Source: a virus
Lineage: Duplodnaviria; Caudoviricetes
Direction: 5' to 3' (one strand)
IMG/VR virus record: IMGVR_UViG_3300034161_000018
Location: 192,001-256,000 of that record
DNA: 64,000 nucleotides
Made by a program: the position numbers and the translations under genes. Each line of letters begins with the position of its first letter. The stretch's first letter is position 1. The notes beneath the pieces are model-generated. The model searched no databases. It had not been told where the DNA came from and saw only the letters and a list, made by a program, of their open reading frames with translations. Below are positions 6,818 through 32,959 of this stretch, piece after piece.

Positions 6818-6834
6818 ATGGTAAAACGGAAACG

Positions 6835-6879
6835 GCTACCCTAATTTATCCATACTGGTTGAGCTAGGGTAGCTTTTTT
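6835..6879 (+). terminator. Intrinsic terminator after the portal gene, with a TAATTTA motif at the stem-loop junction
   Basis: 9-bp stem GCTACCCTA/TAGGGTAGC, 21-nt loop, T6 tract. Confidence 0.7.
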
Positions 6880-7186
6880 CATCGGTAGAGCCTTTTCTGT
6901 GGTTGTCGCCAACTTGAAGTTGGGTGACTTCAACTTGCCGAAACGAATAGATTTACCTCGTCCATAAGTCTGTTCCCGCAGACGCTCGGCTGCCCTAGCT
7001 CGGGCCAGTACCGAATTCTCTTTTTCGCCGCCTTTTGGTCGGACTACTCCTGAGAAGTTAAATCCTAAATCGCGCTGCTAACGAATGTAATGTGCTAGGA
7101 AGCGAAAGCAGTCCGTTGTCACATTGCTTTCTGAGCGGCAAAACGTAACTGGAACTTTTCGCGCGACCTGAACCTAAAAGGCGGCA
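6880..7186 (+). ncRNA. Candidate structured ncRNA, two domains (6882-7014 and 7027-7185), family unknown
   Basis: No credible ORF. Nested helices 6882-6887/7009-7014, 7027-7036/7176-7185, 7037-7041/7164-7168 and 7052-7059/7153-7160, plus a possible loop-loop pairing. G-U pairs work on the + strand. Confidence 0.5.
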
Positions 7187-7194
7187 CCTATTTC

Positions 7195-7205
7195 AAAACT
7201 GTAAA
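7195..7205 (+). promoter_or_regulatory. AAAACTGTAAA putative phage promoter motif (non-structural class)
   Basis: The CTGTAAA core recurs at 7732, 9129, 12163 and on the minus strand at 24358-24368. Confidence 0.4.
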
Positions 7206-7236
7206 CATGCTGCATACACTCACCGAGGAATTTCAA

Positions 7237-7611
7237 GTGGAAAGCGTCGCAATCCCCGCCAGTCAATACGAAAAGAGTTTTGTTGTCGGCCTGTTTGAAG
7301 GGCTTGCAGTAGAAGTTGTTTTCTTGAAGCACGGCGATGTGCCCGTCTACATTAACGAATCCGGTGAATCGGCTGTTGCTGAAACGGAACTGGTGCAAAT
7401 CACGCTTCCAACTTCCGAAGGTTCCGAAAAGATGGCGCAGACTCTGCGTGACGCGTTGCTGAAATTGCGTTCGCCAGATTCCAACACTGTGTTCATTCGT
7501 TCGGCAGACTTTGCGGAAATCAACAACAAGCTGTTTACGTTCGCCCAACTCTGCGTCGGCTTTGTCCACGCCAAATCTGTAACGGAAAATGAATCTGCAA
7601 CCTCGCAATAA
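7237..7611 (+). CDS. Hypothetical protein
   Basis: Track ORF 7207..7611. A GAGGA RBS at 7225-7229 favours GTG 7237. Confidence 0.7.
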   Translation: MESVAIPASQYEKSFVVGLFEGLAVEVVFLKHGDVPVYINESGESAVAETELVQITLPTSEGSEKMAQTLRDALLKLRSPDSNTVFIRSADFAEINNKLFTFAQLCVGFVHAKSVTENESATSQ

Positions 7612-7633
7612 GTTTGACGACGCCGGTGACAAA

Positions 7634-7744
7634 ATGCTCAATGTTTTACTGAGCGCGCCGCCGTTATTTATGGAAGCGCTTTGCGCAATCATTCTGGTGG
7701 CCGGTTATTTCTTTTGGCCGGTTTCACAAATCTGTAAATACTGA
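7634..7744 (+). CDS. Possible 36-aa membrane peptide
   Basis: Read by hand: MLNVLLSAPPLFMEALCAIILVAGYFFWPVSQICKY*. One hydrophobic helix, weak GGTG RBS. Confidence 0.4.
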   Translation: MLNVLLSAPPLFMEALCAIILVAGYFFWPVSQICKY

Positions 7745-7748
7745 ATAT

Positions 7749-8148
7749 GGGAAGATGCTTTCCCGAAAGAGCACTAACGGGTGCTGTCCTTCATCCGTTA
7801 TTGCGCCTGCGCTTCGGTGCCGCTCGTTGTTCCTGAGAGTTGGTTCTAGTAGTCGCCATAGGTGATCCGATTAGCGCCCAGCGTGAAGTGGTGCTATAAA
7901 AGCTAAACAACTTCCTCCGCAACCAAAGCGTTACCTTTACCTCCCTGCGTTTCTTAATGTCCTAAGAAGCGTAGTAAAAAGGACGTGACTTTCGTTTGTG
8001 CGGTAAACCCACGGGAATAGGGCCGTGTGGTCGGCTGTTACATTTTTGAAATGATCGTGCGTGATTTGGTCGATTTGCCGGGCGTAAGCGGCTCATTGAA
8101 TTCGTTTCCCCAAGCCGCGTTCGGAATCCCCACCAGCGCGGCTTTTTT
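7749..8148 (+). ncRNA. Candidate ~400-nt structured ncRNA, family unknown
   Basis: Bounded by CTGTAAATA (7732-7740) and a terminator (8112-8148). Contains a C(UUCG)G hairpin (7809-7820), a 12-bp hairpin (7945-7974) whose loop can pair with 7981-7986, and a GUAA tetraloop hairpin near 8078-8093. Confidence 0.55.
8112..8148 (+). terminator. Intrinsic terminator
   Basis: Stem AAGCCGCG/CGCGGCTT followed by a T tract. Confidence 0.65.
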
Positions 8149-8175
8149 ATGTCTGAAAAATGGAGTGTCACTATT

Positions 8176-9117
8176 ATGGCCGGTTCTGAATCTGCTGCAA
8201 TTGAGCAACTCGACGAAAAAGAAATCTATCACAAGCAAGCGCGTGCAGGTAATCGCATCAAGCAAGTGATGGCAGCGCTGCATATGGAAATCAAAGGCTT
8301 GGATCAGCGGCGCACACAACTGGAACGCCAGTACGCGCAGCTTGAAGAAGCTTTGGAACTACAACAATTCTCGCCGCTGAATATCGGCAAGCGTGATTTG
8401 CCGGAACGCCCAAACAATCACCTCGGCCTGTGCAACGAAATTCCAATGCCCGGTGGCAGTGGTGACACGCCAATTGAATTCACTTTCAATGAAGCTGCGC
8501 GGGACGCATTCTTTGGCCCGCCGATGTTTGAAAGTGGCAAACACATTGACGACTGGCCTGCATCGACAATCGAAACTCCGGTCGAAGTAAAAGAACCTGA
8601 TTTCCTACCAGTGTTCCAGCTTGGCCCGCAAGACAAATTCTATCCACACACCATGCGCGGCGCAGATTGGAATGATGCACTGAATTTCGGTTGCAGCTTT
8701 CCGGAAGACACCGAAGGTTACTGGCGACACAATCCACAAAAGCCCGCTGCCGACGTTTACGAAAAACTTCCGTGGCCGGTTGCTCGCGACATTCCGGGTT
8801 ACAACCCGTTGGATTTCCACAAGCGTATGCGCGACGTTGAAAACCATTCAGCGACCGAGCGTAAAGTTTATCGCGGTATGACAATGCACCGCTGGCATGG
8901 TGGAACATTGGGCAATGCTGAATTCTGGCGTGGTTCATTCCGTTGGCCGGATTCGTATGGCAACTACATTTCCGAAGGCGTGCCACCGTCGCGACATTTC
9001 TTCCGTTTCATCATGACGGAACACGCGGAAATCTTCCCGAAACATCCAACGCTTTCCAATGAAGAATTCAACACCGTGTTCAATTGGTTGCCGAATATGA
9101 AACGAACGCCGGAATGA
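8176..9117 (+). CDS. Hypothetical protein: N-terminal coiled coil plus a C-terminal YRG...WP.....Y domain
   Basis: Track ORF 8149..9117. GGAG RBS at 8162 favours ATG 8176. Confidence 0.75.
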   Translation: MAGSESAAIEQLDEKEIYHKQARAGNRIKQVMAALHMEIKGLDQRRTQLERQYAQLEEALELQQFSPLNIGKRDLPERPNNHLGLCNEIPMPGGSGDTPIEFTFNEAARDAFFGPPMFESGKHIDDWPASTIETPVEVKEPDFLPVFQLGPQDKFYPHTMRGADWNDALNFGCSFPEDTEGYWRHNPQKPAADVYEKLPWPVARDIPGYNPLDFHKRMRDVENHSATERKVYRGMTMHRWHGGTLGNAEFWRGSFRWPDSYGNYISEGVPPSRHFFRFIMTEHAEIFPKHPTLSNEEFNTVFNWLPNMKRTPE

Positions 9118-9140
9118 TCCGGATTAAACTGTAAACTGAA

Positions 9141-9177
9141 ACCGTGCATTCCAACATTCCGGAGTGCGCGGTTTTTT
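9141..9177 (+). terminator. Intrinsic terminator
   Basis: 12-bp stem ACCGTGCATTCC/GGAGTGCGCGGT with G-U pairs, followed by a T tract. Confidence 0.65.
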
Positions 9178-9197: not shown

Positions 9198-9500
9198 ATG
9201 TGGGAACAAATGAGTGCGTCGCAGCAATTGCTCTACATTTGCAATGCTGCCGGAAACAAAAGCGACCGAATTGATATGGCAATGATTTGGCTGGTCGAAG
9301 AAAACATGCGCCAAGACGTGCGTGTGCGTTATACCGATTTGGTAAGCGCCGAAGCTTCGCTGGTCACGTATCGCGGTTTGTCTGACGAACAAATTCAATC
9401 GGTCGATACTTCGCAGCGCTACTATTTCAACATGCTGCACATGCCAGCCGAAGTTAAGGCCCGTTGTGCATGGCACGCGATTGAAAATGTTGATCCGTGA
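9198..9500 (+). CDS. Hypothetical protein
   Basis: GGAG RBS at 9185; in frame with track ORF 9144..9500. Confidence 0.65.
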   Translation: MWEQMSASQQLLYICNAAGNKSDRIDMAMIWLVEENMRQDVRVRYTDLVSAEASLVTYRGLSDEQIQSVDTSQRYYFNMLHMPAEVKARCAWHAIENVDP

Positions 9501-30646: not shown

Positions 30647-32959
30647 ATGACTGACAAACTCATTCTACAAGACGCTGGACTGCGCGCAATCAACAATGCG
30701 AATGCGGGCGGCGTTTTGGTAAATCCGGTATTTTTCAAAGGTGGCGATTCTGCTCTGTCGCCCCTGATGGAGAATGCTACCGATATTCTCGGCAGCGTTG
30801 TAATCCAAGGAAATATTCACCACGTTGAGGTTGCCAGCGCAAACAGTGCTCGATTCTTTTTCGTTCTTGACGGAAACTCTGTCACGGTTGAAACCGAAAT
30901 CAAAGAACTGTGCGTCTATTTGGAAGGCGACATTCTGCTGGGCCGTTGCGTGTTCACCGAAGCAATCGTGCTGATTCCGAATGAGCTTTACGAAATCAGT
31001 GTCGTGCTCGCATCTACACGCGGCGACCTTTCTGCAATTAGCGTTGCATACGGCGATTACGAATCCATTCCAATCACTCCGTTCCTGTATCGTTTGCCAG
31101 CGCCAGCCGCTACGCAATTCAACGCGATTTCAGTTGCCAACGGTGTGACCAACGCAGCCGGGGGCGACTCGCCTATCATGGCTTTGCGTCACGGTTCGGG
31201 CGCTTTCCAGTGGGGCTTTACCGGACACACTCGCGTTTATTCCGCAAAACCAAAAACCGCAACCGTTTCCAGTTTCACGATTACGAGTTCTCAAGTTTTC
31301 GTGGATAAAGAAGTTGTGATTGTTCACGTTGTTGCAGGCACCGGCCTCGGCCAAACCCGCCGCTTCTATTACGAAGCATCCAACGGTTCGTTTATCGAAT
31401 CGGATGGTCGCAACCTGACCGATCTTGCGAATTGCACAATTGCAGTTTGGCGCGCAATGGGTGGCAGTGTGCAAGGTGGCGGTTCTTCGCTTCCTGACAA
31501 AACCAACGTTCCAGAAGATTGGGTTCTGATTTCAGGGCCGGGCGAAACCCCAGTGTGGGGGCCGCAAAAATCTGGCGCAAAAGTTTTGAATACGCTGTAC
31601 ACCGCACCTTCGCGGCTCGACGTAAACATCCTCAATTATATCGGCAACGGTGCGGAAGCGCGGTATAGCCTCGGTGAATTGAGTGTCGAAAACGCAAACT
31701 ACATTTACCCGGCACTCGGCGGCATCACGCAGCACCGTACCGCTTTCGACGTAAACGCGTCGGAATTGGAATTCGCCGAAAACATTCCTGCGGCTGTTGG
31801 TATTGACCTGCGCGTTTTCACAAAAGCGAGCAGCACCGGCACACGTTTGGAATTTACCAGCGATCACTTTGTTGGTGACGGGCAAACCGTTCGTTTCAAA
31901 CTGAAAACTGCAATTGCCGATGTGAAATACGTCTTTGCGTTTATGCAAGGTACGTTGCAGGCGATGAACGCCTACACATACGACAATCAAACTCAGGAAA
32001 TCGTTTTCACCGAACCGCCGCTCGCTGGTTTGCCGTTGGAATTCCGTGCAATTGTGCAGGTCATTGCGACCGGTTACAGCACGCGGATTGTTTCGCAGAC
32101 CTACATGATTACCGGCGAAACGCTTTTCCTCGTTCTGCCATTCAAGCCACAAACGAAAGAACAAGTTTTCCTTTCGCACCAAGGTACGCACGTTCACGAC
32201 GATCTTTATACCATCGTCGAAGACACGTTGATCCTGACCGGCTCGCTGCAAGATGGCGTCGAAGTTGAAGTATTGATTTTCGACAACGTGGAAGCGCAAG
32301 GTTCCGAAAACACAAACCTGAAAGGGATTGTGACTGACGGTTTCCTTTCGTACAAAAGCCTCAAGCTTCTGCGCAACGGAATGTCGCCGATTACTCTGCC
32401 AATTCCAGCGCCAAACTTTGAGTCTGGTGACGGCATTCGGCTGACCGGCAACTATCCGACGATTCGGATCGAAAACACTTTCGCAGCTTCGGCAGCGCAA
32501 GACCCGATTAAGAAATACACCGATCTGAAAGTTGAGAAAAACGCCAGCCAAGTGCTGAGCACGCACCGCGTCGATATTACAAACAACATGCTGATTATGG
32601 TGACTTGCGATTTCGCGGCGAAACTCGGCCCCGGATTCATGACAACCGAAGGTATGGAAAATATCGAATTCGTTGTCGGTATGCGTTCGACCAACACGAA
32701 AGAACCGGATTACGGAAAGCAAATCATTGGTACAGGCTCGGCAGGTTTTACCAGTCTGGTCGGCACCACTTCCAGTTCGACAACTGCATTCGCAAACGCG
32801 AGCATGACGCGCATTTTTGAAATCGACAAATCCAACCATCCGGCTGGCTACGTTGAAGTCATTGGCAAAATGCGAATCAACAACGCAAACGTGAGTCAGT
32901 TCCCCGCACTGCTTACCGTGAACTTAAACGTTGTTGAAATTCCAAAATGGGACACGTAA
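30647..32959 (+). CDS. Tail fibre proximal/collar-type protein
   Basis: N-terminus (L.DAGL.AI..A...G..V....FK.GD) resembles tail-collar fibre domains; repeated G.G....F.L beta modules. Confidence 0.62.
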   Translation: MTDKLILQDAGLRAINNANAGGVLVNPVFFKGGDSALSPLMENATDILGSVVIQGNIHHVEVASANSARFFFVLDGNSVTVETEIKELCVYLEGDILLGRCVFTEAIVLIPNELYEISVVLASTRGDLSAISVAYGDYESIPITPFLYRLPAPAATQFNAISVANGVTNAAGGDSPIMALRHGSGAFQWGFTGHTRVYSAKPKTATVSSFTITSSQVFVDKEVVIVHVVAGTGLGQTRRFYYEASNGSFIESDGRNLTDLANCTIAVWRAMGGSVQGGGSSLPDKTNVPEDWVLISGPGETPVWGPQKSGAKVLNTLYTAPSRLDVNILNYIGNGAEARYSLGELSVENANYIYPALGGITQHRTAFDVNASELEFAENIPAAVGIDLRVFTKASSTGTRLEFTSDHFVGDGQTVRFKLKTAIADVKYVFAFMQGTLQAMNAYTYDNQTQEIVFTEPPLAGLPLEFRAIVQVIATGYSTRIVSQTYMITGETLFLVLPFKPQTKEQVFLSHQGTHVHDDLYTIVEDTLILTGSLQDGVEVEVLIFDNVEAQGSENTNLKGIVTDGFLSYKSLKLLRNGMSPITLPIPAPNFESGDGIRLTGNYPTIRIENTFAASAAQDPIKKYTDLKVEKNASQVLSTHRVDITNNMLIMVTCDFAAKLGPGFMTTEGMENIEFVVGMRSTNTKEPDYGKQIIGTGSAGFTSLVGTTSSSTTAFANASMTRIFEIDKSNHPAGYVEVIGKMRINNANVSQFPALLTVNLNVVEIPKWDT

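Follow-up and report, generated by a model that had tools for sequence, protein, structure and literature searches.

A covarying RNA family with a promoter-like motif and an intrinsic terminator in an accessory module of PaBG-like jumbo phages

What does a jumbo phage encode in a 404-nt gap between two genes that carries no credible reading frame? The gap lies at 7745-8148 (+) of a 64,000-nt stretch (hereafter the window; bases 192,001-256,000) of an IMG/VR phage genome of 274,896 bp with direct terminal repeats, and it is filled by the RNA element described here, with p51 on one side and p322 on the other. The initial annotation had proposed a pseudoknotted non-coding RNA, either a divergent tmRNA relative or a new large phage RNA. 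Among cultured phages, the portal protein points to Pseudomonas phage PaBG (64.6% identity) and Lu11 as the nearest.

For the genomic setting, 20 portal relatives from IMG/VR were compared. Just one other contig has the genes surrounding the gap; at the other 18 portal loci the portal gene is followed directly by p118 and the gp5-like hub genes, and in PaBG the same slot is occupied by unrelated genes. This comparison indicates that the gap belongs to an accessory module of 2.3 kb, in the order structured gap 1, p134, p51, RNA and p322, which has been found so far in a single subclade of PaBG-like jumbo phages, where the portal gene precedes it and the baseplate-hub genes follow. More loci were gathered by protein searches with p322 and p134 followed by contig look-ups, giving 15 further loci of about 8 lineages from soil, sediment, wetland and wastewater assemblies. 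All 15 showed the identical gene order and a gap of 400-480 nt at the equivalent place, and p134 and p51 are conserved at all loci. Loci L064-L068 were recovered via another gene and were kept out of the building of the covariance model.

The coding potential of the gap was determined with a codon-usage log-likelihood scan trained on 90 long ORFs from the same genome. The neighbouring genes scored +10 to +14 per 120 nt in their true frames, and no coding signal was detected in any of the six frames over about 7660-8080, where the scores stayed near or below zero (best +4.6 at 8020). Every ORF within 7745-8148 is disrupted in relatives.

The gap was then compared with known RNAs. At the gathering score, the models of Rfam 15 gave zero matches across the 64-kb window; at E<=10 the sole match within 7500-8400 was a chance Togavirus element at 7548-7627 (-), outside the RNA, and at E<=1 nothing was found in the RNA region of five relatives. 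The models covered include GOLLD, ROOL, HEARO, RNase P, 6S, group I and II introns, T-box and riboswitches, none of which matches. There was no match by blastn against 50,697 phage records, no copy in a pattern scan of 185,579 prokaryote genomes, and just one other contig in exact-pattern scans of IMG/VR and the JGI metagenomes with the most conserved core words (22 of the 23 JGI metagenome pattern matches were due to chance). With the covariance model, nothing credible was found in PaBG or in three complete relatives lacking the module, and the phage's own genome holds no paralog of the RNA. No cultured phage is known to have the element. A search for RNA runs covering 7600-8300 gave none. 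Among four sequencing runs compared with the stretch, DNA contigs were obtained together with two 151-nt pieces from a run labelled RNA, which are probably DNA, and neither bears on the ends or the level of a transcript. No paper describing such an RNA in PaBG-like phages was found in the literature. A catalogue of viral structured-RNA candidates demanded at least three IMG/VR regions (PMC10690425), and since the present family has two, it is probably absent from that catalogue. The element is thus a new RNA family, previously undescribed, of a broad kind that is known, namely large structured phage RNAs or leaders.

An alignment of the gaps by MAFFT (A2) showed an invariant 5' hairpin, a hypervariable region, a near-constant core, a variable linker and a conserved terminator. 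The positions of these parts, of the helices within the core and of the neighbouring genes are listed in Table 1.

Table 1. Positions of the neighbouring genes and of the parts of the RNA element in the window
Feature	Position	Strand	Remarks
p134	from 7237	+	GTG start after GAGGAA; 124 aa; start at 7207 in the ORF list probably wrong
p51	7589-7744	+	51-codon gene; small protein with hydrophobic stretch
Promoter-like motif	7727-7741	+	CAAATCTGTAAATAC, variant of genome-wide AAACTGTAAAC; overlaps last codons of p51
P1, 5'-terminal stem-loop	7749-7764	+	GGGAAG-AUGC-UUUCCC, then conserved GAAAGAGCA; six pairs in 12/12 A2 sequences
Hypervariable 5' domain	7765-7870	+	one or two lineage-specific irregular hairpins (per-sequence folds) of unrelated sequence
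Px, stem 1 of H-type pseudoknot	7872-7896	+	UAGCGCC (7872-78) pairs with GGUGCUA (7890-96)
H1, pseudoknot stem 2	7881-83/7918-20	+	from covariation
H2, pseudoknot stem 2	7885-89/7910-14	+	from covariation
Pseudoknot loop 3	7897-7909	+	A-rich
H3, long-range helix	7922-31/8059-70	+	ACCAAAGCGU with GCGUGAUUUGGU; closes a multi-helix domain of 149-153 nt
H4	7935-37/7979-81	+	encloses H5; 2/3 pairs compensatory
H5, 12-bp hairpin	7945-56/7963-74	+	10/12 pairs compensatory; preceded by invariant CUCCC
H6	7982-89/8051-58	+	7/7 pairs compensatory; 84% paired; encloses H7 and H8
H7	7998-8004/8034-41	+	87% paired
H8	8011-14/8023-26	+	98% paired
H9, hairpin GCCGG...CGGC	8077-81/8089-92	+	conserved CGUWA loop; 96.7% paired; nearly invariant
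Variable linker	8095-8111	+	ends in pyrimidine tract GUUUCCCC (8104-8111); alignment A2
Intrinsic terminator	8112-8148	+	AAGCCGCG (8112-19) pairs with CGCGGCUU (8137-44); C-rich loop; U6 at 8143-48
p322	8176-9117	+	ATG start; 313 aa; ribosome-binding site GGAG (8162-65); listed from 8149

The core, 7871-8094, is 224 nt long with nine helices, and its length in relatives is 221-230 nt. Folding of the single sequence gave -139.4 kcal/mol (z = -2.93) for the plus strand, against z = -1.88 for the minus strand, and RNAalifold on the gap alignment predicted 69 pairs, among which 32 had changed in a compensatory way on both sides. All family members, including the five loci outside model building, scored 154-221 bits with R1, a covariance model built on the core (223 positions, 55 pairs). 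In the alignment fitted to this model (15 distinct sequences, representing only about 8 lineages), pairing is kept in 92.6% of the 822 cells (slid controls, 36-43%), pairs changed on both sides number 30 against 9-15, and cells changed on both sides 117 against 22-28; the observed values of pairing and covariation were reached by 0 of 500 shuffles. Because this alignment had been fitted to the model, the count was repeated on a plain MAFFT alignment, in which 93.4% of cells are paired (35-45% slid) with 25 compensatory pairs (7-8 slid). Covariation across related phages was a check named in the initial annotation, and over both alignments it came out at 92-93% of cells paired against 35-45%, with 25-30 compensatory pairs against 7-15.

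The best-supported helices are H3, H5 and H6. In H3, 99.3% of cells are paired and five of the ten pairs are compensatory (for instance CCAAA/UUUGG is replaced by UUGGA/UCCAA), and the length of the domain that it closes is constant among relatives. Px is paired in 90.5% of cells against 30-59% in slid controls, with 3 compensatory pairs. It is not nested with H1 and H2, as the loop of Px contains the 5' strands of both; H1 is 100% and H2 87.5% paired, with compensatory changes in each, H2 being weak in the clade of L035, L002 and L068. Two invariant motifs accompany the 3' helices, GGGAAUAGGGCC (8013-8024), which forms the loop of H8 and adjoining pairs, and CGAUU, which precedes H9 within 8071-8094. 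Several G-U pairs are invariant (e.g. in 15/15 or 14/15 sequences), and since these would be C-A on the opposite strand, the plus strand is the functional one.

This pattern bears on a reading of the gap as an unrecognised small protein gene or genes, or as an element acting at the DNA level, for example an origin, a site for packaging or an array of protein-binding sites. About 30 gaps of at least 250 nt exist in the crude gene map, some of which may hide small genes, and packaging genes adjoin the locus. The substitutions, however, are compensatory in pairs and not three-periodic, in addition to the flat coding scan and the broken ORFs; the conserved G-U pairs are strand-specific and would not be needed for a cruciform or a binding site; and no repeats are present, as Tandem Repeats Finder returned 0 rows and no direct-repeat family was found within the RNA. 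We regard a gene or DNA element at this place as very improbable.

The seven hairpins listed in the initial annotation fared unequally. Five are conserved (GGGAAG/TTTCCC, TAGCGCC/GGTGCTA, the 12-bp stem, CACGG/CCGTG and the GUAA-capped stem), four of them with covariation and the GUAA-capped stem without compensatory change, but AGCAC/GTGCT and GCGC-UUCG-GUGC are not conserved and belong to the hypervariable 5' domain. This domain is 90-140 nt long among relatives, with an identity of 54-77% against 58-98% for the core. On the 3' side the linker carries an extra hairpin of 30-40 nt in four lineages, and across lineages 6 to about 45 nt separate the core from the terminator. The predicted terminator stood up well: its GC-rich stem of 8 bp and a run of 5-7 U are retained in all relatives, with compensatory changes such as GCCGCG/CGCGGC to ACCGUG/CACGGU. 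A simple terminator scan misses 8112-8148 solely because its loop exceeds 8 nt. In the PaBG group the host core polymerase is used with a phage-encoded sigma-70-type factor (PMC7412058), and an intrinsic terminator should therefore work.

A promoter motif of the RNA's own had also been claimed. The word CTGTAAATA forms the terminal codons of p51 and is at the same time a member of a recurrent genome motif, AAAWCTGTAAAY; as an exact word it recurs little, with two occurrences only. The recurrent motif emerged on aligning the upstream gap of the module, in which the word recurs as CAAAACTGTAAAC, about 30 nt ahead of p134. In the form AA[AT]CTGTAAA it occurs in 30 copies in the genome against about 0.26 expected (an excess of about 100-fold), of which 28 are co-oriented with the local genes and only 13 are followed by a predicted start within 60 nt. 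Across nine lineages there is almost no variation in the 15 nt that end p51 and the 12 nt that follow (CAAATCTGTAAAYANTGAAYAYGGGAA), four synonymous sites included, and the codons just before this segment vary freely. The motif was found at the equivalent place in L064-L068. What holds of the claim is thus a recurrent, co-oriented genome motif at 7727-7741, for which a role as promoter is the probable interpretation.

Among the 7-mers with the strongest enrichment in the 90 nt preceding genes is ACTGTAA, together with TAATTTA and ACACTTACGACT, and the occurrence of the latter two beside AAACTGTAAAC suggests three promoter classes. From its distribution, AAACTGTAAAC is likely a promoter element of this phage group, which would fit the sigma-70-type factor of PaBG (PMC7412058) and a sub-threshold match to Sigma70_r2 in the present genome. 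The 5' end of the RNA would then be placed at about 7745-7749, by the base of the 5' hairpin. With these observations the candidate RNA of the initial annotation is confirmed: the gap is non-coding, the structure is conserved and covarying, and synteny and terminator are kept. The alternative of a new large phage RNA is likewise strengthened by the conserved synteny, the constant core length, the covariation, the promoter-like motif and the terminator.

Sites of the AAACTGTAAAC motif are located at 7194-7206, 7727-7741 and 9124-9136, and at 27 more places of the genome. At 9124-9175 the motif stands between the stop codon of p322 and a hairpin resembling a terminator (9138-9175 plus a T-run). 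Transcription beginning about 7-9 nt past this motif would start in the 5' arm of the hairpin, so that transcripts from upstream would terminate and those of this promoter would not. Outside the window, a 336-nt gap at 165456-165791 of the whole genome carries four copies of AAACTGTAAAC, with a hairpin GGGAAACG...CGTTTCCC about 10 nt past the first copy, in a layout matching the 5' end of the RNA; this gap may encode further small RNAs.

The relation to tmRNA (SsrA, including the permuted form) was suggested by a size of about 350-400 nt, by pseudoknots and by the occasional carriage of tmRNA by phages, and in this one sequence also by a frame starting with an alanine codon and ending in a hairpin. 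The RNA differs in having neither a tRNA-like domain nor a conserved tag frame, and its covarying helices are without tmRNA counterpart. ARAGORN in tmRNA mode gave 0 matches in the window and in the whole 275-kb genome, which also holds no tRNA genes, and Infernal with Rfam gave no match to the tmRNA clan at E<=10, nor in five relatives at E<=1. The absence of an acceptor stem and a T-arm had been stated from the start and is agreed upon here; the T-loop-like letters of the terminator loop differ among relatives. The A-rich stretch taken for a resume signal is actually loop 3 of the Px/H1-H2 pseudoknot. The GCA-initiated frame at 7919, read as a tag, varies from 12 to 33 codons in relatives, with unrelated ends and frameshifts by indels, and the 'tag' region itself forms the covarying helices H3 and H5.

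The pseudoknot between the loop ATGTCC and GGACGT is present here with 7 bp, but only the subclade of the window, L024 and L027 retains it. Taken as AUGUCCU/AGGACGU, it has 7-8 bp in these three; in L002 the pairing comes to 6 bp, wobble pairs included, and elsewhere to 3-5 bp, not above shuffled sequence. On its 3' side it overlaps two covarying helices, H4 and H6. One covarying pseudoknot (Px/H1-H2) lies upstream of the 'tag' and a subclade-specific one downstream, neither of which is homologous to PK1-PK4 in a model search. The limitation of the pseudoknot to a subclade and the unconserved tag frame led us to reject a kinship with tmRNA, and a tmRNA identity is ruled out by the lack of a tRNA-like domain, of a conserved tag frame and of a model match. 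The probability that the RNA is a divergent tmRNA, or a tmRNA-like RNA of trans-translation, is close to nil in our estimate.

The function of the RNA has to be considered together with p322, which accompanies it in 15 of the 16 loci. Homologs of p322 are about 305 aa long, begin with MAGSES or MADSKS and follow a GGAG, indicating that the true start is the ATG at 8176; the next gene has 100 aa in relatives, which places its start near 9198 and makes the listed start at 9144 probably wrong. Model and fold searches indicated that p322 combines a coiled coil at its N-terminus with a DUF7919-like domain at its C-terminus, the latter being encoded by other jumbo phages also as a small protein on its own. 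Homologs of this C-terminal domain are found at unrelated places in PaBG, Lu11, HRDY3 and jumbo phages of Erwinia, and a paralog is encoded outside the window, at 32056-32487 (-) of the whole genome (32% identity over 147 aa). Neither p322 nor p134 could be placed in a Pfam or PHROG family. The predicted fold of p134 is confident (pLDDT 86.7), and fold searches with it gave no convincing match. Foldseek and VIA searches with p322 and p134 yielded just matches to uncharacterised proteins and coiled coils, together with weak hits to a TNT domain (E 0.14-0.5) and to lambda gpU (E 0.04) that were not trusted. By inspection, p51 is likely a membrane protein.

None of the three upstream-enriched motifs is present in 7745-8175, that is, upstream of p322, and the distance from the U-tract to the ATG of p322 is 27 nt. 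Lacking a promoter motif of its own, p322 would be transcribed only by read-through of the terminator of the RNA. Two readings have to be weighed on this basis. We favour a stable stand-alone RNA, which we hold to with about even confidence. The RNA would form a transcription unit of its own, running from the motif at 7727-7741 through the stem-loop, the hypervariable domain, the core and the linker to the terminator at 8112-8148. The bulk of the transcripts would stop at the terminator and give a stable RNA, protected by a hairpin at both ends, which would act as RNA, presumably in trans, be it as a scaffold, as a decoy or as the partner of a protein. The minority of read-through transcripts would be the only visible source of p322 mRNA, and a single promoter would thus supply the RNA and p322 at very different levels.

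Alternatively, the RNA could be a cis-acting leader or attenuator in the p322 mRNA. Its fold would then decide between a stop at 8148 and read-through, either unaided or with a bound partner, be it a ligand, the polymerase or a protein, perhaps p322. The order of motif, structured RNA, terminator, ribosome-binding site and ATG is the classic layout of a cis-acting leader, and the short distance to the p322 start with no intervening promoter motif, as well as the co-occurrence of RNA and p322, agrees with it. The 3' arm of H9 (GCGGCU) is moreover the best or second-best alternative partner of the 5' arm of the terminator in six of nine lineages. However, there is no alternative partner common to all lineages: in L029, L035 and L002 the candidate antiterminator has disappeared with no compensating change, and the covariation of the terminator is between its own two arms. 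Between core and terminator, the spacer differs in content as well as in length, and the RNA is large and complex; to our knowledge, attenuators are far smaller than a nine-helix core of 224 nt with about 130 nt of variable hairpins. When compared with attenuating leaders in general (riboswitches, T-box and protein-binding leaders), which share a structured RNA from promoter to ORF with a terminator just before the ribosome-binding site, the present RNA is 2-4 times larger, its linker is variable, no antiterminator extends across lineages and no leader model of Rfam matches.

In the one exceptional locus, L066, the RNA, the promoter motif and the terminator are intact in spite of the loss of p322, which has become an out-of-frame remnant of about 55 codons (L066:3341-3600). 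The RNA core of L066 is 99% identical to that of relatives which keep p322, indicating that the deletion is recent and thus weak evidence. L066 is a Logan contig of 123 kb whose p134 protein is found on 17 contigs, and two unrelated genes are inserted downstream. It is the variable spacer between core and terminator, the lack of a universal antiterminator and the presence of L066 without an intact p322 that make us prefer the stand-alone RNA; the leader we consider rather unlikely.

The arrangement of a promoter, a non-coding RNA, an intrinsic terminator and a protein gene is also that of type III toxin-antitoxin systems (ToxI-ToxN), in which read-through sets a high ratio of RNA to protein. 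The likeness is one of layout only, as the RNA is not an array of tandem repeats and p322 has no ToxN/AbiEii-like or other nuclease signature in Pfam. A pseudoknotted RNA of several hundred nt directly upstream of an ORF is known from the omega-RNA of IscB and IsrB (HEARO). That model, however, does not match, and p322, with its DUF7919-like C-terminal domain, shows no RuvC or HNH signature in Pfam or in fold searches.

A further resemblance in kind is to GOLLD and ROOL of phages and prophages and to OLE and raiA of bacteria, which are likewise large and multi-helix, covary strongly and are unexplained by their neighbouring genes. The RNA does not match their Rfam models, and it differs from GOLLD and ROOL in being smaller and in having no adjoining tRNA genes. 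A more far-reaching but tentative possibility is that it represents a new class of large ornate phage RNA acting by itself and ranking with GOLLD, ROOL and OLE, for instance as a ribozyme, as an RNA-only assembly or as a decoy of host defence or RNA machinery, and that it may work with the RNA of a second structured stretch in the module.

This second conserved non-coding stretch, 6818-7206, is located 0.6 kb upstream of the RNA. It contains the portal terminator (at about 6835-6885), followed by about 300 nt with long invariant blocks, and RNAalifold predicted 86 pairs across 9 lineages, 24 of them with compensatory changes. About 140 nt downstream, GGCUGCCCUAGCUC offers a possible alternative partner to the 3' arm of the portal terminator. 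Pairing between this stretch and the RNA was looked for by RNAduplex, which on full-length RNAs gave meaningless giant duplexes and was discarded.

Natural RNAs of several hundred nt with many covarying helices and pseudoknots are rare, and most of those that are understood are ribozymes, ribonucleoprotein scaffolds or self-assembling RNAs. In jumbo phages, mobile accessory slots are where anti-defence and takeover functions tend to gather. The RNA family described here, unannotated and absent from Rfam, shares such a mobile accessory slot with a second structured stretch. As a by-product, its analysis yielded a candidate promoter motif, AAACTGTAAAC, for this phage group. With a defined promoter-like motif and terminator, a natural variant lacking the neighbour gene and sufficient diversity for compensatory mutants, the family offers a clean test case.
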